Positions 5,240-13,072 of a DNA stretch of 13,122 bases are shown here, piece by piece. The first letter of the stretch is position 1. Each line of letters begins with the position of its first letter. The notes below the pieces were generated by a model. It was not told where the DNA came from, searched no databases, and was given only the letters and a program-made list of their open reading frames with translations. This stretch comes from a virus, in the UHGV virus genome UHGV-0105863. One strand, 5' to 3'. The translations under genes were made by a program, and so were the position numbers.

Positions 5240-5428
5240 TTATTTCCTTAGCACATGAAACAATGTTTGCTTTAATTCCACCCATACAATTATGACCACT
5301 ATAGACAGACAAAAGAAACTGAATGCATTGGCATCACGATCGAAACCTTCTCCGGCACTAAATCCGTAAAAGGTCATAAAAAATATAAAAATTGCGCACT
5401 TTGCAACGTTTACAAATTTTTTCTTCAC
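5240..5428 (-). CDS. Small predicted membrane protein (62 aa, two hydrophobic segments), GTG start
   Basis: In-frame GTG at 5428-5426 (minus strand) is preceded by a perfect AGGAGG (plus 5434-5439), 5 nt upstream. Translation is VKKKFVNVAKCAIFIFFMTFYGFSAGEGFDRDANAFSFFCLSIVVIIVWVELKQTLFHVLRK. The 134-aa version in the ORF track would run antisense through the HExxH gene and has no RBS. Confidence 0.5.
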   Translation of the reverse strand: MKKKFVNVAKCAIFIFFMTFYGFSAGEGFDRDANAFSFFCLSIVVIIVWVELKQTLFHVLRK

Positions 5429-5458
5429 ACCAACCTCCTTAGTTTTGAGCAGGATACC

Positions 5459-5824
5459 ATGAAAAAAGTTAACATTGGAAACGTACCAAAGATGCTCGTT
5501 CCGCTCTTTGAGAGCGGTACAATTGTGTTTTGTAGAGACTTTCCAGAATGGCAACGCCTGCATCAAAAACTTGGTGTGGACGTGCAGGACTCGGATGCCA
5601 ACGGAGCGTCTCATACAATGAGCAGCGAGAATGGTGTTTTGCATGTGATAGGCGTGTTCAATGGCAAACTATCTACTATTGCCCATGAGTGCGCTCACAT
5701 GGCATTCGATATCTGCTCAAGGGTCGGTGTTGATGTTGAACCAGGAAGAGCCAACGAGACTTACTGCTACTTAATGAGCAGGCTTGTTGAGTTCTGCGAG
5801 CGACATATCAAAAAGCCGGAGTGA
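5459..5824 (+). CDS. HExxH zincin-like small protein (121 aa), putative metallopeptidase-fold
   Basis: ATG at 5459 with AGGA 4 nt upstream. Contains IAHECAHMAFDI (an HExxH motif) with glutamates about 20-25 residues downstream (VEPG, NETY) that could act as the third metal ligand. Stop lies inside a hairpin followed by a T-rich tract. Confidence 0.7.
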   Translation: MKKVNIGNVPKMLVPLFESGTIVFCRDFPEWQRLHQKLGVDVQDSDANGASHTMSSENGVLHVIGVFNGKLSTIAHECAHMAFDICSRVGVDVEPGRANETYCYLMSRLVEFCERHIKKPE

Positions 5825-5846
5825 CCCGGCTTGATTATTACTTTTT
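5808..5846. terminator. Hairpin between convergent genes, candidate bidirectional terminator
   Basis: AAGCCGG (5813-5819), 6-nt loop, CCGGCTT (5826-5832). Downstream on plus is GATTATTACTTTTTG. On minus only about 3-5 U follow the stem, so it is weaker in that direction. Confidence 0.45.
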
Positions 5847-6017
5847 GCTGTCTGGAGTTCGCTTATCTAATACCCAGCCATGACCTGGCTGTGTTGTTGG
5901 CGGAAGCCTTTCGTTGTCCTTGACGGTGGCAAAATTGTCTTTCTTACCGCCGCGCGGGCCAACCTCTTGGTATATTCCGCCGTTTTTTCCTGTGTTTTCA
6001 CCTGGTTTTTTCGCCAT
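5838..6017 (-). CDS. YjzC-like small protein (59 aa)
   Basis: ATG at 6017-6015 (minus) with GAGGT 7 nt upstream. MAKKPGENTGKNGGIYQEVGPRGGKKDNFATVKDNERLPPTTQPGHGWVL... matches my memory of the YjzC-like small protein family (G-x-Y-x-E-V-G ... P-x-T ... G-x-W). The MLRYI start at 6032 in the ORF track has no RBS. Confidence 0.6.
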   Translation of the reverse strand: MAKKPGENTGKNGGIYQEVGPRGGKKDNFATVKDNERLPPTTQPGHGWVLDKRTPDSKK

Positions 6018-6094
6018 GATATACCTCAACATACACCCGTTATTGGGCGATTAAATATTGATCTCATTTTATAAGTAGTCAATATGGCCCAGGC

Positions 6095-6126
6095 AAATGA
6101 AAAAATTAACCAGCCATCAGGCTGGT
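6095..6126 (-). terminator. Rho-independent terminator for the minus-strand secreted-protein gene
   Basis: ACCAGCC (6109-6115), loop ATCA, GGCTGGT (6120-6126). On the minus strand the hairpin is followed by UAAUUUUUUCAUUU. It sits directly after the stop codon at 6128-6130. Confidence 0.6.
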
Positions 6127-6127
6127 A

Positions 6128-6310
6128 TTAGTCACATTCTATTTCTTTTGTCGAGGTCCATACATAAGGATCTGAGCAAACAACCTCTCCATTTATCATG
6201 ACGTCATAGCCCATTAGATATGAGTTACCACCAACAACCTGGGCGGCGATGACGCTAATGCTGGCGGCGCAGGCTGCACCAAAAACGAAACCAATTAATA
6301 TATTTTTCAT
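6128..6310 (-). CDS. Small exported protein (60 aa) with N-terminal signal peptide and two Cys in the mature part
   Basis: [24 protein letters not shown] is a signal-peptide-like N-terminus without a canonical lipobox. The mature part of about 36 aa has Cys at positions 45 and 59. The gene has its own terminator. Confidence 0.55.
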
Positions 6311-6341
6311 TTTGATTCCAAATAGTTATAGGATGAAAGTT

Positions 6342-6527
6342 ATGACCATAGAAGAACGCCTGAACAACATTGAGTTGAACCAAACCTTGCTTGACCAGCG
6401 ACTTTCAGATCTTGAGCTTAAAGATCTAGATGCGCAAATATCAGAAGCAGAAGCCAAGCTCTCCAGCTTAAACCACCGTAAGAAGCAAATCCGCAACAGA
6501 ATTACTCAGGGACGCGGAAGCTGTTGA
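6342..6527 (+). CDS. Small coiled-coil protein (61 aa); alternative start at 6333
   Basis: AGGA at 6330-6333, 8 nt before the ATG at 6342. Translation MTIEERLNNIELNQTLLDQRLSDLELKDLDAQISEAEAKLSSLNHRKKQIRNRITQGRGSC has heptad-like L/I spacing. The 3' end overlaps orf69 convergently by 26 nt, so reality is uncertain. Confidence 0.4.
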   Translation: MTIEERLNNIELNQTLLDQRLSDLELKDLDAQISEAEAKLSSLNHRKKQIRNRITQGRGSC

Positions 6528-6711
6528 GGTGGGATGCTAGGTCTCTATCGTTAAAATCAAGGCTGCTAATCATTTCATTGTAAATGGCGTTTTTATCTTC
6601 CATTGGCAGTCTTGAGTAAACCAGACACAGAGCATATTTCAGGGAGTTTAGCTCTTTCTCTAGCTCTTCCTTGCTTGACGTTGTTGACTTAATAAACTGT
6701 TTTTTATTCAT
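6502..6711 (-). CDS. Hypothetical 69-aa protein, translationally coupled downstream of mnt
   Basis: Its ATG (plus 6711-6709) overlaps the mnt stop (ATGA), and AAGGA lies 6 nt upstream inside the mnt 3' end. Translation MNKKQFIKSTTSSKEELEKELNSLKYALCLVYSRLPMEDKNAIYNEMISSLDFNDRDLASHLNSFRVPE is acidic and helical. Confidence 0.6.
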   Translation of the reverse strand: MNKKQFIKSTTSSKEELEKELNSLKYALCLVYSRLPMEDKNAIYNEMISSLDFNDRDLASHLNSFRVPE

Positions 6712-6959
6712 TTTGCATCCTTACCATACATGGTCTTTAGCGTCTCAACATCGTGTTCAAGATCTATCAATCGTGATGCTATAGTTGCAAGGTCTAGTGC
6801 TTGAATGTGTTTATTTTTTTCGGTCCACGCTTCAAGTGCCGCGACCATCTCAGCATTTAATGAACGAGAATTAGCCTCAGCCAGTTCAATAAGACGTTCC
6901 TTTATCTCTACAGGAAGCCTCAGATTCACTTGAGGGTTTTTGTACTTACGATCAGACAT
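6708..6959 (-). CDS. mnt: Mnt-like ribbon-helix-helix repressor (83 aa), maintenance-of-lysogeny repressor of the immI region
   Basis: 83 aa, the same length as P22 Mnt. The N-terminal RHH signature NLRLPVEIKERLIELAEANSRSLNAEMVAALEAW is followed by a helical C-terminus. It is divergent from arc-ant, as in P22 immI, with AGGA 7 nt before the ATG. Confidence 0.85.
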   Translation of the reverse strand: MSDRKYKNPQVNLRLPVEIKERLIELAEANSRSLNAEMVAALEAWTEKNKHIQALDLATIASRLIDLEHDVETLKTMYGKDAK

Positions 6960-6987
6960 CGGCGCATCCTGAATAATTTTTTACCAC

Positions 6988-7016
6988 AGGATATGTAGGT
7001 ATCTATTGACTATCAA
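6988..7016 (-). promoter_or_regulatory. Candidate Pmnt (minus strand): TTGATA, 17-bp spacer, TATCCT
   Basis: The -35 is the reverse complement of plus 7011-7016 and the -10 is the reverse complement of plus 6988-6993. It lies about 20-30 nt upstream of the mnt ATG. The -10 is weak (4/6). Confidence 0.35.
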
Positions 7017-7025
7017 TGCGTACCT
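6997..7025. promoter_or_regulatory. Imperfect 29-bp palindrome AGGTA-n3-ATTGA-CTA-TCAAT-n3-TACCT, candidate repressor operator (Omnt-like)
   Basis: Read directly from the sequence. Centred at 7011, it covers the -35 of Pant and the -35 of the candidate Pmnt. The outer AGGT half-site recalls the P22 Omnt half-site (from memory). Confidence 0.4.
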
Positions 7026-7034
7026 AAATACTAT
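7006..7034 (+). promoter_or_regulatory. Pant-like sigma70 promoter: TTGACT, 17-bp spacer, TACTAT
   Basis: -35 at 7006-7011 and -10 at 7029-7034, about 30 nt upstream of the arc ATG. The -10 is flanked by two copies of ATGCGTACC (7016-7024 and 7037-7045). Confidence 0.55.
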
Positions 7035-7064
7035 GTATGCGTACCACATACAACGGAGGATGCA

Positions 7065-7205
7065 ATGAAGGTAAAAACACTGCGTATGCCAGAGAAGCTA
7101 GAAAAAATTCTTGAAGAAAAAGCAAAGGAAGAGTGTCGCTCATTCAGCGCAGAAGTAATTAAACGGGTGCTGGACAGCCTGAGGAGAGAGGGGATAACGG
7201 TGTGA
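7065..7205 (+). CDS. arc: Arc-like ribbon-helix-helix repressor (46 aa)
   Basis: GGAGG 6 nt upstream of the ATG at 7065. MKVKTLRMPEKLEKILEEKAKEECRSFSAEVIKRVLDSLRREGITV aligns by eye with P22 Arc (..RWPREVLDLVRKVAEENGRSVNSEIYQRVMESFKKEG..). It is below the 60-aa cutoff of the ORF track. The frame is intact. Confidence 0.8.
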   Translation: MKVKTLRMPEKLEKILEEKAKEECRSFSAEVIKRVLDSLRREGITV

Positions 7206-7227
7206 TTCGCTTGGATGCGGCAAAGAA

Positions 7228-7303
7228 ATCAAAACAGTGAAGCCCCAACTGCTGGAACAGTTAGGGCTTCGGTATCGTAAAACCACGCATAGGAATTAAC
7301 GAC
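7228..7303 (-). ncRNA. sar: sar-like small antisense RNA covering the ant ribosome-binding site and start codon
   Basis: A minus-strand promoter sits just inside ant, with a predicted start near plus 7303. The minus-strand terminator is a hairpin GAAGCCC/GGGCTTC (7239-7270, with inner stem AACTG/CAGTT) followed on the minus strand by ACUGUUUUGAUUUCUUU. Predicted length of about 70-75 nt matches P22 sar (about 69 nt from memory). Confidence 0.5.
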
Positions 7304-8227
7304 ATGAAAAGTATAGCAACAGCAGTATCTACTATCAATGTACCATTCCACGGCGCAGAGCTTTATGTTGTCAATCACAACGGCGAACCGTATACCCCAA
7401 TGAAACCTATCGTTGAGGGAATGGGGCTAGACTGGAAATCTCAACATAAGAAGATTTCTCAACGCTTCTCGAAGGGTATGGTGGAAATCACCATACCTTC
7501 TGCCGGTGGGGTGCAAGCCATGATTTGTATGGCTTTACGAAAATTGGCAGCTTGGTTGAACAGCATCAGTCCTAACAAAGTCCGCCCTGAAATCCGCGAC
7601 AAGGTAATCCAGTATCAGGAAGAGTGTGACGATGTGCTCTACGAGTACTGGACTAAAGGCCATGTAGTTAACCCACGCAAAGCTAAAAAGGCGTTGCCGG
7701 GTAAAATCACCACTGAACAGCAGGAAGCCATTAAACAACTCGTCATGAGTCGCGGTCAGTCTCTGCCAAAAGAAAAACAGGCGAAGGCGATGATCACCAT
7801 GTGGTCGTCACTGAAATCCCATTTTGGATGTTCGTACAAAGAAATCAGTGATGAGCAGTTTACCGAAGCACTGTCACTTGCTGCTCGCGTTCCGCTTGAA
7901 GGTGAGTTCATTGGCAAACAAGAGAAGAAAACCAACGAGCTTTCTGCAAAAGAAGCAAACAGCCTTGTATGGCTATGGGATTATGCCAACCGCTCACAGG
8001 CATTATTCCGCGAATTGTATCCGGCGCTAAAACAAATTCAATCGAACTATTCCGGCAGATGTCATGACTGCGGTTATGAGTTCTCCCGTATTATCGATAT
8101 GGCGAGAGACGTTTTAATCAATCACACACGAGATGTTGATATCAATGAGCCAGACGGACCAACGAATCTTTCCGCATGGATGAGACTTAAGAATAAAGAA
8201 TTACCTCCTTCAGTACATAACTACTGA
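7304..8227 (+). CDS. ant: Ant-like antirepressor (307 aa)
   Basis: Lies directly downstream of arc, as in P22 immI. Size is close to P22 Ant (about 300 aa). The N-terminal region resembles the phage antirepressor N-domain by memory. AGGA lies 9 nt before the ATG. Confidence 0.75.
   Translation: MKSIATAVSTINVPFHGAELYVVNHNGEPYTPMKPIVEGMGLDWKSQHKKISQRFSKGMVEITIPSAGGVQAMICMALRKLAAWLNSISPNKVRPEIRDKVIQYQEECDDVLYEYWTKGHVVNPRKAKKALPGKITTEQQEAIKQLVMSRGQSLPKEKQAKAMITMWSSLKSHFGCSYKEISDEQFTEALSLAARVPLEGEFIGKQEKKTNELSAKEANSLVWLWDYANRSQALFRELYPALKQIQSNYSGRCHDCGYEFSRIIDMARDVLINHTRDVDINEPDGPTNLSAWMRLKNKELPPSVHNY
7310..7338 (-). promoter_or_regulatory. Psar-like promoter on minus strand: TTGATA, 17-bp spacer, TATACT
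   Basis: The -35 is the reverse complement of plus 7333-7338 and the -10 is the reverse complement of plus 7310-7315. It is near-consensus and fires leftward across the ant start codon at 7304. Confidence 0.5.
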
Positions 8228-8245
8228 CAGATAACCAACGCAACG

Positions 8246-8270
8246 ACCCAGCTTCGGCTGGGTTTTTTTA
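8246..8270 (+). terminator. Rho-independent terminator after ant
   Basis: ACCCAGC (8246-8252), TTCG tetraloop, GCTGGGT (8257-8263), followed by seven T. A textbook intrinsic terminator. Confidence 0.8.
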
Positions 8271-8327
8271 TGCCAAAAATTCACCGTAGCCATGCTGCGG
8301 CCATTCCTTGTATCTGGAGCAAATCAA

Positions 8328-10673
8328 ATGACAGATTCAATAAATGCCAATGTTGTAGTGAGTATGCCTTCGCAACTCTTCACTATGGCTCGTTCTTTTA
8401 AAGCTGTAGCCAATGGCAAAATTTATATCGGTAAAATTGACACTGACCCGGTAAACCCTGAAAACCAGATTCAGGTTTATGTAGAGAACGAAGACGGTTC
8501 TCACGTTCCTGTTTCGCAACCAATCATCATTAACGCTGCTGGATATCCGGTATATAACGGACAGATTGCCAAGTTCGTTACTGTGCAAGGGCATTCTATG
8601 GCTGTTTATGATGCGTATGGTGCTCAGCAGTTCTATTTTCCTAATGTGCTAAAGTATGATCCAGATCAGTTTAGGCAGCAGCTTGCAGTAGTTGATAGCA
8701 ATGTATTGATTTCTGGTGTTCCAGCAAAAGATGTTGTAAATGCCAAAACTGGACGAGCACCAGTAGTTATGACTCGAAAAGTTACAGACCTTCTTCTTGA
8801 TGGTAAGGCTGGGTTGCGTAAAAACTTTGGTGCTGTAGGCGATGGTAGTCATGACGATACACAGGCATTTAATGATCTGTGGGATGCGCTTATGGATCCG
8901 ACATATAAACGCCGCGCAATAGAAACAGACGAGGTTGGTCTGCCATTTATGATACAAAAAGGCCCAGCACTTCTAATTGAAAATGGAACGTTTATTTACA
9001 ATGGGCCTGGTCTCAATATTGAAACATCAGATTCATTTGTATTTAACATATCAGGTGAGAGCAGTATTTCAACAAAGATACTTTTACCAGATGGAGTATA
9101 CCTATTCGATTTCGATAATAACCCTGTTCATGCATATCTAGGGAATATGTCAATTCATGGTGGTAAAGGTGCTGTTCGATACAAATCAAAAGAACGATCA
9201 ACTAACAGCATTCACCTTTTCGAAAATCTTCGCCTGTCGAGATACAAGGAGTGTGGCATAGGGAATAATTCAATCGATATGCCGTATTTCCGAGTGAAGG
9301 GATGCATGTTATACGGGGACCCAGCAAGCCAGACTATTGGTATTTGTGTCTCTGGTTACTCTGCTGGCGGCTTCATTGAGGACTGTGTTATCAGCGACAA
9401 TAGATATAATATAAAACTGGCAGTTGGTGATAATGGCGTGGAGCGTAATGGCCCTGCAACGCCTTTCTATGTCTGCAGGAACGACATGTACCGCACGGGG
9501 CGACGAGCGCCATCAGCATCGTATGACATATGGATTGAGCCTGGTGCTACTACCATCAACTCTGGGAGAGGTATTCAGATAATCCAAAATAAATTTGGGC
9601 AAGAAAACCTAATCGCACCAGATACTCATGTTTTGATCGCAGATGCTGCCGCTACAGGGAGCGGGTTAAATCTCAATGGAGATCGCGCTCATATAGAAAC
9701 ACAGTCAGTTGGTTTTGTGTCTGGCTTACGTTTCGAGGGGAATAACGTAAACTCAGCTAATAGTGGATATATTGCCCCTTTCATTCGCTCATTTACGCCA
9801 AACCTTGGAAATAACAAAATAAATGACCTTTATGACAATGACATGCCAGCAAGAATCATAGAGTTCGCGGGTGGCATAACCCAAAGTCAAATGACTAACC
9901 TTTCACGTACCAACGTCTTTAGTGCAGCCCAATGCATTGCGCTTCAGAAGGGTGTTGAACCTAAGTTGTTATCTAACCTTAATGATGTCTTCCGGCTTGA
10001 GGATCCTTTGGGGTTCTACGTCGGGCATCCTCAAGCTCAGGTTTTACCGTCAGGTTCTCAGCAGATTGGATTTGAATTGATCTACTCTGGGCCGACGTCG
10101 ACGATTGGGGTGAGTAACGCAACAAGATTATCGGTAAATAACTCATATGGAGGGATATCGGAAGCAACTGAAATCACAATGACCGCTTCTGATGGCGTGG
10201 CAGTTGCCACTGTTGTTGGCGGACTTGCTGGTAGGAAGCACTGGATTGATTTCGAGCTTAAGCGCGGGACAACAAACCCTGTTGGTTCTGTTGTTGTGGA
10301 GATAATGGATGCTTCCGGGTCAGTTCTCCAACTTCGTCGTATTATTTTAATAGACACTTTTCCACGCTGGCAGAAAGTCGCCATTCCTTATGTTCCAAAT
10401 GAAGACGGTAATATTGTAGTCAAATTCAGATCTAATCTTTATTCGGCTGGAACGGCAACTAACTTTATTGTCGGAAATCTCAATGTTTACAGGAATGAGG
10501 AGCGAGTCAATACAGGGCATAACTCAGGATTGAGGATGCAATGGAATCTACAACATACCGTAAGAGGTACAAGACACGAGTGGTATGACGCGTCAGGTAA
10601 TTTACGCTCCAAAAATGGGGTGCCGAGTGGGGATGCCGATGGGGTAATCATTAGCGCTAACCCAACATTGTAA
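8328..10673 (+). CDS. Tailspike protein (781 aa): P22-type head-binding N-terminal domain fused to a right-handed beta-helix receptor-binding domain
   Basis: Start taken at ATG 8328 ([12 protein letters not shown]...) with GGAG 8 nt upstream; the ORF-track start at 8292 adds 12 residues absent from P22 gp9. The first ~115 residues (..[34 protein letters not shown]...[14 protein letters not shown]......VLKYDPDQ) match P22 gp9 from memory. Downstream is unrelated and contains [19 protein letters not shown], a typical pectate-lyase-fold motif. Confidence 0.9.
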
Positions 10674-10736
10674 AAATTTGATCTTCGCATAGCTAGAAGT
10701 TACTGTATATAAAAACAGCATTGTGAGGTTATAGAC

Positions 10737-10976
10737 ATGATCAGACGCAACATAATTTCGGAGGCTTTCAGAGCCTCCATTTCTATAAATCCTAAAGGTT
10801 ATCAATACCTTTACACGCATTCTTTCATCTCCGAACTACAGAGGATGGGTATCAATTTCTCAGAAGAGGAGGCTAACAACTGGATATCGAGAGAGCAGAC
10901 TTACTTTGTTGACAAAACCACCGACCATAGCGAAAACCGCCTGTGGATGCTGGCCAATATGGGTAGGGTTCTCTGA
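10737..10976 (+). CDS. Hypothetical protein (79 aa) downstream of tailspike
   Basis: ATG with GAGG 9 nt upstream. No recognisable motif. Sits where P22 carries its conversion genes. Confidence 0.45.
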   Translation: MIRRNIISEAFRASISINPKGYQYLYTHSFISELQRMGINFSEEEANNWISREQTYFVDKTTDHSENRLWMLANMGRVL

Positions 10977-11905
10977 TGTGATTTCCATCACCGGCGTCCG
11001 ACTACGTCGAGCAGCTACTGTCCGTTAACTCGATATGCAATGTTGGTCCTAACACATTGTTGCTTGAAACCAGTGGTGGATATGCCGTGGTTGATGTCTC
11101 TCTGAAACTTAAGCAGAGATGTCAGGTGATGGTCTGCTATGAAGCACATAATCAGATAGCGAAGCTTATGGGGAAATCTTTGATAACGGAGGATGGAGAG
11201 GCGATCGAGGGAGAGGCCCTGGATGATGTCACCGTTGCCGTCGTGGTGACGCATATTATCGTGGATGTGAGAAGTGACAGCGTAGCAGTATAAGGCAGAC
11301 CCACAATCAGGGACTACCGATTTTGATTACTCCACCTTTTCATCAAGCCAATCTGCCCACCATTGCATCATTTCTCTGCATTTATCGTAGTTGATGCAAC
11401 ACTATCACACTGTAATAGCTTATTACTGGTTTGCAGACAGGTAGGCATGAACAGATACCTGCGCATGAAGACGGAACTAGTCCAGATGTGATATTTGTGG
11501 TGATCACATACATCATCAACGATGCTCGTTATGGTGAGTTTGATGACTACCCACTGAAGTGAAAATTGTGTTGTGTACCAAATTGCGTACCAAACTAAAA
11601 TCACAAATTATGAAACCCTTGTTCATGGCGGCTCTCAGGGGTGTTGCGCGTAATCGTGAAACAAAAAGGTAGATTGTTGCTTACCGTCATTCATCATTAG
11701 GTTAAATCCGTTATTTCTGCTGTCTGCCAGAGTATCAAATATCACCGTGCTAATCAGCTTTAGCGCGACAATTTGGCAGCGAGTGACAACAGATCATGTC
11801 AGATAAAAATGAGATAGTAGTCACATTTTCTTGCACTTTATTCCAGCCAGTTCATAAGTATTTCCGTAAAAAGAACAGCTATTTGAAACACCTGAGGGTT
11901 TGCTG

Positions 11906-13072
11906 TTGAAACGCCGTCTTATTATTGCTGCTTCTTTGTTCGTTTTTAATTTATCGTCTGGTTTTGCGGCGGAAAACATTCCTTTTTCACCTCAGCCTCC
12001 AGAGATTCATGCCGGGTCCTGGGTATTGATGGATTACACCACCGGTCAGATTCTCACTGCGGGTAATGAGCATCAACAGCGCAATCCCGCCAGCCTGACA
12101 AAGCTGATGACGGGCTATGTCGTGGATCGCGCTATCGATAGTCATCGCATTACGCCAGACGATATTGTCACCGTGGGGCGTGATGCGTGGGCGAAAGATA
12201 ATCCGGTGTTTGTCGGTTCTTCACTGATGTTTTTGAAAGAGGGCGATCGCGTATCGGTACGTGATTTAAGCCGAGGTTTAATTGTGGATTCCGGAAATGA
12301 CGCTTGTGTTGCTCTGGCTGACTATATTGCCGGTGGGCAACGGCAGTTTGTTGAAATGATGAACAACTATGCCGAGAAGCTGCATCTCAAGGATACGCAT
12401 TTTGAAACAGTGCATGGTCTGGATGCACCTGGCCAGCATAGCTCGGCTTATGATTTAGCCGTGCTTTCTCGCGCTATCATCCACGGCGAGCCCGAGTTTT
12501 ATCATATGTACAGTGAGAAAAGCCTCACCTGGAACGGTATCACCCAGCAAAACCGTAACGGGTTATTGTGGGATAAGACCATGAATGTTGACGGCCTGAA
12601 AACGGGCCATACTTCTGGTGCCGGGTTTAATCTTATTGCTTCGGCTGTAGACGGGCAGCGTCGCCTCATTGCAGTGGTAATGGGTGCTGACAGCGCAAAA
12701 GGTCGTGAGGAAGAGGCAAAAAAATTACTGCGTTGGGGGCAACAAAACTTTACTACGGTGCAAATTTTGCACCGTAGGAAAAAGGTCGGTACGGAACGCA
12801 TCTGGTATGGTGATAAAGAAAATATCGCCCTGGGAACGGAACAAGAGTTCTGGATGGTGCTACCGAAAGCCGAAATTCCACATATCAAAGCCAAATATAC
12901 CCTTGATGGTAAAGAGCTCACCGCGCCAATTAGCGCCCATCAGCGGGTAGGGGAAATTGAACTTTACGACCGTGATAAACAGGTGGCGCACTGGCCGCTG
13001 GTTACCCTGGAATCTGTCGGGGAAGGCAGCATGTTTTCTCGCCTGAGTGATTATTTCCACCATAAGGCCTGA
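11906..13072 (+). CDS. dacD: D-alanyl-D-alanine carboxypeptidase DacD (PBP6b), host chromosomal gene
   Basis: Start taken at TTG 11906 (MKRRLIIAASLFVFNLSSGFA signal peptide) with GAGGG 7 nt upstream, giving 388 aa; the ORF-track start at 11900 gives 390 aa. Contains the class A PBP motifs SLTK (SxxK), SGN and KTG. I recognise the sequence as enterobacterial DacD. Confidence 0.9.
   Translation: MKRRLIIAASLFVFNLSSGFAAENIPFSPQPPEIHAGSWVLMDYTTGQILTAGNEHQQRNPASLTKLMTGYVVDRAIDSHRITPDDIVTVGRDAWAKDNPVFVGSSLMFLKEGDRVSVRDLSRGLIVDSGNDACVALADYIAGGQRQFVEMMNNYAEKLHLKDTHFETVHGLDAPGQHSSAYDLAVLSRAIIHGEPEFYHMYSEKSLTWNGITQQNRNGLLWDKTMNVDGLKTGHTSGAGFNLIASAVDGQRRLIAVVMGADSAKGREEEAKKLLRWGQQNFTTVQILHRRKKVGTERIWYGDKENIALGTEQEFWMVLPKAEIPHIKAKYTLDGKELTAPISAHQRVGEIELYDRDKQVAHWPLVTLESVGEGSMFSRLSDYFHHKA

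Follow-up and report, generated by a model that had tools for sequence, protein, structure and literature searches.

A P22-type tailspike with a predicted KL127 capsule depolymerase module in Escherichia coli prophages

The DNA analysed here (the window) is a stretch of 13,122 nucleotides (nt) of the UHGV virus genome UHGV-0105863, the right arm of a temperate P22-like podovirus prophage integrated between sbcB and dacD of E. coli. Its plus strand carries a tailspike open reading frame (ORF) at 8292..10673, whose product from the ATG at 8328 has 781 amino acids (aa). We found that this protein is a mosaic, in which a conserved head-binding domain of the P22 type is joined just after a hinge motif to a receptor module unrelated to that of P22. 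Judged from sequence comparison, the tailspike is probably a depolymerase of the KL127 capsule, and we give this reading a probability of about 0.65. KL127 can be named with fair confidence because two independent lines converge on it: a genome-wide association study (GWAS) with enzymology in Klebsiella, and genome co-occurrence in E. coli.

Head-binding domain and crossover site

The initial annotation had proposed that the first ~115 residues are of the P22 gp9 type and that the remainder is foreign to the P22 endorhamnosidase, and the sequence comparison agreed with both. The head-binding (virion-attachment) domain of P22 gp9/Sf6 gp14 type occupies aa 1-115 (8328..8672, plus strand). The Pfam family Head_binding (PF09008) matched aa 4-114 with 218.5 bits against a cut-off of 24 (E = 2e-65), and the PDB entries 7sg7, 2vky and 1lkt, which hold the P22 gp9 and Sf6 gp14 head-binding domains, were matched with E values of 1e-45 to 1e-66. 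Identity in this domain is 93% with Sf6 gp14 (106/114) and 74% with P22 gp9 (83/112). Beyond aa ~117 there was no sequence match to the P22, Sf6 and HK620 structures (including 2xc1, 8tvr and 5gai), so identity to P22 gp9 does not run through the full length; one Sf6 alignment reaching aa 198 was weak, save in the first-rung motif of the receptor module.

The crossover is visible in the DNA. The head-binding region is 91-96% identical to HK620, CUS-3 and E212, with CUS-3 at 94% across nt 37-353 of the tailspike gene. The first ~350 nt of the gene were matched by 29 phage records and by 1,132 of 5,426 complete E. coli genomes at 82-96% identity, and then the match stops; the whole gene was found at the DNA level in only three of these 5,426 genomes. 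The conserved hinge VLKYDPDQ (aa 107-114) lies at 8646..8669 on the plus strand, about 20-30 nt upstream of the 8680-8700 at which it had been placed, and it is the DNA breakpoint, where similarity to other P22-like phages breaks off at nt 8675-8692, that falls in that range. Counted from the hinge, the loss of similarity comes 9-23 nt downstream (8678-8692). E212 is 96.6% identical over window positions 8056-8678, is then lost, and comes back at 11325-11678. CUS-3 and HK620 match the left part of the window (tail needle, gp14, ejection proteins and ant) up to 8675-8680. Since similarity to all three phages ends there, the left crossover is located within ~25 nt after the hinge.

The linker of aa 116-141 (8673..8750, plus strand) has low model confidence, with a predicted local distance difference test score of 43-62, and is found only in some homologues, P0017 among them. 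Where the N-termini are unrelated, the alignment of homologues begins at aa ~111-143, and strong conservation begins with GRAP at ~aa 142. The P22-type sequence PDQFRQQLA (window 8673-8700) aligns with GD(T/A)LRQxLxS, which closes many Klebsiella tail-fibre anchor domains. A short motif common to both sides at the exact domain joint could be the point of recombination.

Fold of the receptor module

From its N-terminus on, the protein consists of a head-binding domain, a flexible linker, a capped right-handed beta-helix, and a sandwich resembling carbohydrate-binding modules (CBM) with a small terminal module. Homologue alignments place the start of the receptor module, a cap with helices beginning GRAP, at aa 142-214 (8751..8969, plus strand). 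This part includes the 19-residue first-rung motif (aa 166-184, 8823-8879, plus strand), which is similar to pectate-lyase-3. From the DSSP strands of the model, with approximate bounds, the right-handed parallel beta-helix covers aa ~215-561 (8970..10010, plus strand) and is presumed to be the catalytic body. AlphaFold2 strands further indicate a C-terminal beta-sandwich of the CBM4/22 type at aa ~583-722 and a small terminal beta module at aa ~744-776 (together 10074..10655, plus strand); local Foldseek matches of the sandwich were CBM4 (1gui, 3p6b) and CBM22 (4xup), with E values of 2e-4 to 4e-4.

A beta-helix receptor domain with pectate-lyase hallmarks had been proposed from the sequence. 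The helix is confirmed by the predicted structure, which as a monomer is confident overall. Concerning the hallmarks, the first-rung motif is present but the sequence signal is weak: the single Pfam match, PF12708 (Pect-lyase_RHGA_epim/Pectate_lyase_3), was sub-threshold (17 bits against 27) and covered aa 165-184 only, while Pfam and PDB sequence searches of the C-terminal 660 aa gave nothing significant. We therefore base the assignment on the predicted structure. The closest folds to the module include both hydrolases and lyases. Over 42 homologues of 49-87% identity, 67 module positions are invariant, many of them helix Asp, Glu, Arg, His and Lys, which suggests a conserved active site.

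Receptor module homologues and the KL127 capsule in Klebsiella

A database search returned 56 homologue clusters, mainly from Klebsiella and Raoultella prophages, and their adaptors differ (PF18668, PF26986, PF12571 or none). Through tblastn we also found copies 55-63% identical over ~97% of the module in five unrelated phage lineages, namely the Kagunavirus siphovirus RP180, N4-like Gamaleyaviruses, a Vectrevirus, Klebsiella podoviruses and the 252-kb Klebsiella phage YC1. A literature search for a published receptor assignment of RP180, IME11/Gamaleyavirus and TH49/TH50 gave nothing usable.

Members of this family have been linked to KL127. The recombinant prophage protein 319_37 formed halos on KL127 only, among 118 K-types, and the GWAS clusters PC0959, PC0692 and PC1803 were associated with KL127 (2026 PLoS Biology, PMC13123978). 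Against 319_37 the window protein has 67.6% identity over 262 aa, and against 321_74 it has 66.2% over 396 aa; the values for PC0959 and PC0692 are 63.8% and 69.1%. These comparisons use the first 400 residues of the published proteins (246-396 module residues) and were extended via the near-identical full-length proxies P0013 and P0054. Within the homologue set PC0959 corresponds to P0008, PC0692 approximately to P0011, and 319_37 approximately to P0054/P0013, and these homologues are 66-70% identical to the window protein over 96-97% of the module (P0008 70% over 96%). KL127_319_37 is placed in DepoCatalog class 1F, a beta-helix with two C-terminal modules (10.1101/2025.09.09.675204), which agrees with the model of the window protein.

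A 61% identical module copy was also noted in "Acinetobacter phage LAPP1" (MN923124.1), annotated as "putative prophage endo-N-neuraminidase". Such a label is probably wrong for a protein with a beta-helix instead of a sialidase fold. The host named in the record is unexpected as well, the module being otherwise confined to phages of Enterobacteriaceae.

The G+C content of the receptor module (window 8600-10700) is ~40-47%, like the rest of the prophage, and that of the Klebsiella chromosome is ~57%. Being far under the latter and close to the former, the module looks like long-resident phage DNA instead of a recent import from a bacterial chromosome.

Distribution of the module in E. coli genomes

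A sensitive DNA search detected the receptor module in four of the 5,426 complete E. coli genomes, as three 99.9% copies and one diverged copy in strain 45E. A K-specific segment of 7 kb is 100% identical in 17 of the 5,426, including strain 6409, and all four module carriers fall within these 17. The KL127 label of the 17 genomes comes from the Kaptive type of strain 6409 (PMC6128206 supplement), which was described as O89m:H9 with Kaptive KL127, a six-coding-sequence O9 remnant, and the true O-antigen locus between nfsB and ybdK (Harris et al. 2018, PMC6128206). The group 1 capsule locus of the lysogens contains wzi-wza-wzb-wzc-wbaP, a GT2 gene, wzy, a pyruvyltransferase gene and a further glycosyltransferase gene, followed by gnd, rmlBADC and ugd. 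From this gene content, the polymer would comprise Gal, Rha, GlcA and pyruvate.

The module was acquired at least three times separately: at the dacD site, at the argW site with a different integrase, and as the diverged copy in an unrelated prophage of 45E. Fisher's test gave p = 6.6e-11 against all genomes, 6.6e-6 within the O89m genomes, and ~1.7e-4 when three acquisitions were counted.

The initial annotation had left the target as O-antigen or capsule, and the evidence points to the capsule (KL127 group 1, of the O89m E. coli lineage). That the module targets the O89m O-antigen, the lipopolysaccharide of the host lineage, would fit the habit of P22-like tailspikes, which are typically O-antigen endoglycosidases (PMC10408124), and also fits the intact O89m locus found between nfsB and ybdK in XJW9B263 and the fact that all verified carriers belong to the O89m lineage. 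The genome distribution speaks otherwise. The O89m locus is present in 306-327 complete genomes, yet the module is confined to the 17-genome KL127 subset; it is absent from the ~290 O89m genomes without KL127, and no carrier was found outside the KL127 group. In addition, the homologues come overwhelmingly from Klebsiella and Raoultella and are KL127-associated, one of them degrades KL127 capsule, and the Klebsiella host of 319_37, KSB1_7F, has the unrelated O type OL13 (PMC13123978). O89m as the receptor is therefore largely rejected, and we regard it as improbable. The complete O89m locus (O89/O101/O162 family) has IS26 on its flanks, in agreement with Harris et al. 2018.

A polymannan common to both genera, E. 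coli O9 or Klebsiella O3, would explain the spread across genera, and RefSeq annotates O9-family wzm, wzt, wbdA and wbdC beside his in the lysogens; O9 equals Klebsiella OL3 (10.64898/2026.05.19.726188). However, this cluster is an IS1-truncated remnant with rfbK cut and manC missing, and Harris et al. also call O9 a remnant. Of the 202-285 genomes with O9-type genes, none outside the KL127 group has the module, and KSB1_7F is OL13, not O3. With a truncated locus and the module absent from O9 genomes without KL127, we reject the O9 mannan as receptor and give it a very small chance. The remnant and the O89m locus were read from 25845-35991 of record L004 and 33281-45004 of record L010.

Several points weigh against KL127 as the target. 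All 17 KL127 E. coli have the same K-locus sequence, which makes a single host lineage probable, and the co-occurrence statistics overstate independence; a fair count is ~3 events. O89m was directly verified in XJW9B263 only and is taken from the literature for strain 6409. The KL127 typing covers the complete-genome carriers, and the window's own host, known from a metagenome contig, lies outside it. Because the KL127 locus in these E. coli has IS1 insertions and small fragmented ORFs, capsule production in these strains is not certain. On the Klebsiella side, 319_37 is weak, with a minimal halo-forming concentration of 320 ug/ml and low expression, and all three KL127 GWAS predictors were graded only "likely" (PMC13123978). 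Specificity could also drift at 66-70% identity to the validated enzyme.

In record L004, the KL127 locus has an unannotated 1.2-kb gap after wzy (11019-12226) and three tiny ORFs before IS1 (14530-16700). These may represent disrupted genes, for wzx or a glycosyltransferase.

Drift of specificity is at the centre of the main residual alternative, in which a KL127-family module has moved to a different, related capsule type, or binds without cleaving, and its presence in KL127 lysogens reflects lineage history instead of current specificity. The identity of only 66-70% and the clonal relation of the carriers would both allow it, and there are precedents: 5 of 14 active Klebsiella prophage enzymes hit a K-type other than that of their host (PMC13123978), and in the case of phiHS4 an induced prophage can fail on its own cured host. 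On the other side, the three separate acquisitions in KL127 E. coli, including the copy of 68% nt identity, and the invariant positions of the module weigh against this alternative. We consider drift or binding only to be unlikely, with perhaps a fifth of the weight, and keep KL127 cleavage, predicted for this protein, as the preferred reading.

Prophage setting and carriers

A 71.6-kb human gut metagenome contig (ENA ERZ920282) contains the window with 100% identity. The gene order of the window is needle, gp14, gp7/gp20/gp16, an immI-like region with Arc and Ant, and then the tailspike, and CUS-3 is the best overall backbone match. A self-comparison gave no repeat of window 8946-9964 among the ejection genes of XJW9B263. 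The gp7/gp20/gp16 ejection genes, immI and the gp4/gp10/gp26 tail hub are annotated neighbours in XJW9B263, EM03-18-08 and the source contig.

Near-identical tailspikes were found at the sbcB/dacD site in the prophages of E. coli XJW9B263 and EM03-18-08, and in a distinct P22-like prophage of VE-F5 at the tRNA-Arg (argW) site with an IntS integrase. A second allele, 87% identical, is in another argW prophage. E. coli 45E has a module copy of 67.8% nt identity within an 891-aa protein without the head-binding domain (record L007, 13200-15875); it sits in an unrelated prophage near yfgI/ppk with a T7-gp14-family core protein, and the host has the KL127 locus.

The EM03-18-08 assembly contains a complete circular phage copy of 39,096 bp, from integrase to tailspike, that matches the chromosomal prophage, suggesting excision. 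This copy is NZ_CP063485.1 (1-39096), filed as "plasmid pEM03-18-08_2", and most likely represents the phage genome after excision or in replication, not a plasmid. We also considered whether the gene is a decaying, non-functional remnant in a defective prophage, as some chromosomal prophage genes of EM03-18-08 are annotated as frameshifted. Against this, the reading frame is unbroken, its conservation across four genomes and five metagenomic/SRA contigs is 99.3-99.9%, the structural gene set is full, a free circular phage genome exists in EM03-18-08, and the model is confident. Decay is thus highly improbable. The identical protein is present in the SRA and metagenome samples ERR1190903, ERR1790061 and SRR10687707.

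Between the gp16 ejection gene and ant, window 5240-7300 forms a hypervariable slot. In the window it holds six small ORFs of no assigned function (PHROGs only) and an Arc-like repressor (6708-6959); in the otherwise near-identical XJW9B263 prophage it holds a Rap1a/Tai-family immunity protein, and in EM03-18-08 a SieA-like protein and a P63C-domain protein.

Start codon and flanking features

The biological start of the tailspike gene is assigned to ATG 8328, because a Shine-Dalgarno sequence GGAG (8316-8319, plus strand) is spaced 8 nt upstream of it, which favours 8328 over 8292, because the N-terminus beginning MTD resembles the starts of P22 gp9 and Sf6 gp14, and because three E. coli genomes, XJW9B263 among them, have this start in their RefSeq annotation. 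Upstream lies the antirepressor gene ant (7304-8227). Between ant and the tailspike gene, a consensus scan detected a terminator-like hairpin with a T-run (8245..8274, plus strand), composed of an 8-bp stem with 5 GC pairs and a TTTTTAT tail; from its sequence, it would act as a terminator.

Two small ORFs follow on the plus strand. The first (10737..10976, 79 aa, phrog_3893, no assigned function) is beside the tailspike in P22-like prophages only; no copy adjoins the module in RP180, YC1 or 45E, and phage E212 lacks the ORF. The second (11057..11293, 78 aa from TTG, 91 aa in the RefSeq version, phrog_3469) is likewise linked to the tailspike in P22-like prophages only. Since E212 is without them, both were considered as part of the imported cassette, but this was rejected: they accompany the tailspike only in the P22-like right arm and not in RP180, YC1 or 45E, so they are counted to that arm.

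The right end of the prophage is at 11325..11678 (plus strand), where E212 similarity restarts with 81% and then 94.8% identity. Phage DNA stops at ~11678, and a match to the circular junction of the excised phage genome NZ_CP063485.1 extends through that position. Host dacD is next (ORF 11900-13072 from TTG; the annotated 388-aa dacD corresponds to ~11906-13072).

Proposed model

We propose that residues 1-115 plug the spike, presumably a homotrimer by analogy with the P22 and Sf6 structures, into the gp4/gp10/gp26 tail hub encoded upstream. From aa ~142 to its end, the protein would represent a cassette circulating among phages of Klebsiella, Raoultella and Escherichia; these phages belong to five or more unrelated lineages, and every lineage has a particular adaptor at the N-terminus. 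The beta-helix groove may bind and cleave the Klebsiella-type KL127 group 1 capsule of the O89m, sequence type 10 (ST10) complex lineage of E. coli, so that the virion could tunnel through the capsule to the outer membrane, and the CBM-like domain may aid binding or trimer stability.

We might further speculate, at even odds, that the depolymerase cassette moved between genera in the wake of the capsule. The KL127 locus of Klebsiella would have entered the multidrug-resistant O89m/ST10-complex lineage, and P22-like phages of E. coli would then have captured a KL127-specific Klebsiella phage module at the hinge motif DQFRQQL/GDTLRQxL, leaving at least two P22-like backbones and one unrelated prophage as present carriers. 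If true, this would be a natural and datable capture of a receptor module after a serotype switch of the host, and would offer a ready-made reagent against both O89m:KL127 E. coli and KL127 Klebsiella.

Concerning host range, the module predicts a P22-like phage that infects E. coli with the Klebsiella KL127 capsule, and the combination of O89m with a group 1 capsule in the ST10 complex has been linked to multidrug resistance (Harris et al. 2018, PMC6128206). As to method, the case shows that capsule specificity can be inferred by setting Klebsiella GWAS and enzymology beside E. coli co-occurrence, data sets that are unrelated to each other. The module is also a candidate KL127 depolymerase that may be grafted onto P22-type or tailocin scaffolds.

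Comparison with known systems

That the P22 head-binding domain is joined at the hinge to unrelated modules for receptor binding is classical, with P22, Sf6, HK620 and CUS-3 as examples. Exchange of receptor modules across phage genera has also been documented (PMC10408124), and the receptor-module family itself was already published in 2025-2026, so no concept is changed here. What appears new is a KL127-family depolymerase on a P22-type anchor, in prophages of O89m:KL127 E. coli and on several backbones. The retargeting swap suggested at first is supported, with KL127 as the probable capsule.

The receptor domains of P22 gp9, Sf6 gp14 and HK620 gp9 have no sequence similarity to the window protein past aa ~117. 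Those spikes cut O-antigens as endorhamnosidases or endo-N-acetylglucosaminidases, whereas a group 1 capsule is the most likely target of the window spike. A further difference is its C-terminal end, a CBM-like sandwich where P22 and Sf6 have other domains. CUS-3 shares with the window protein a P22-type head-binding domain joined to a capsule-degrading module. Its catalytic module, however, is an endosialidase of the beta-propeller type acting on the group 2 K1 capsule, in contrast to the beta-helix and proposed group 1 capsule here.

In the Klebsiella proteins 319_37, PC0959, PC0692 and PC1803 the module is homologous from GRAP on, with a beta-helix, two C-terminal modules and KL127 hosts. 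These proteins have Tail_spike_N or other Klebsiella-type anchors and reside in Klebsiella prophages, while the window module is on a P22 head-binding domain in an E. coli prophage, and ~30% of residues differ between them. RP180 ORF29 and the tail proteins of Gamaleyavirus (IME11, 24-32N) are 59-63% identical across ~98% of the module length, but on the backbones of a lytic siphovirus and an N4-like podovirus with different adaptors.

A parallel in biology is given by phiHS3 and phiHS4 (Hueyvirus, E. coli HS; 10.64898/2026.05.19.726188), P22-like temperate phages whose tailspikes cluster with Klebsiella phage proteins and which use a Klebsiella-derived group 1 capsule as receptor, as we propose for the window phage. 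They differ in capsule (K47), host (O9:K47), phage genus and tailspike family, the last because E. coli HS is not among the genomes matching the window gene. To the K47 case of E. coli HS, the window tailspike would add a second and independent example of P22-like phages of E. coli that borrow Klebsiella capsule depolymerases.

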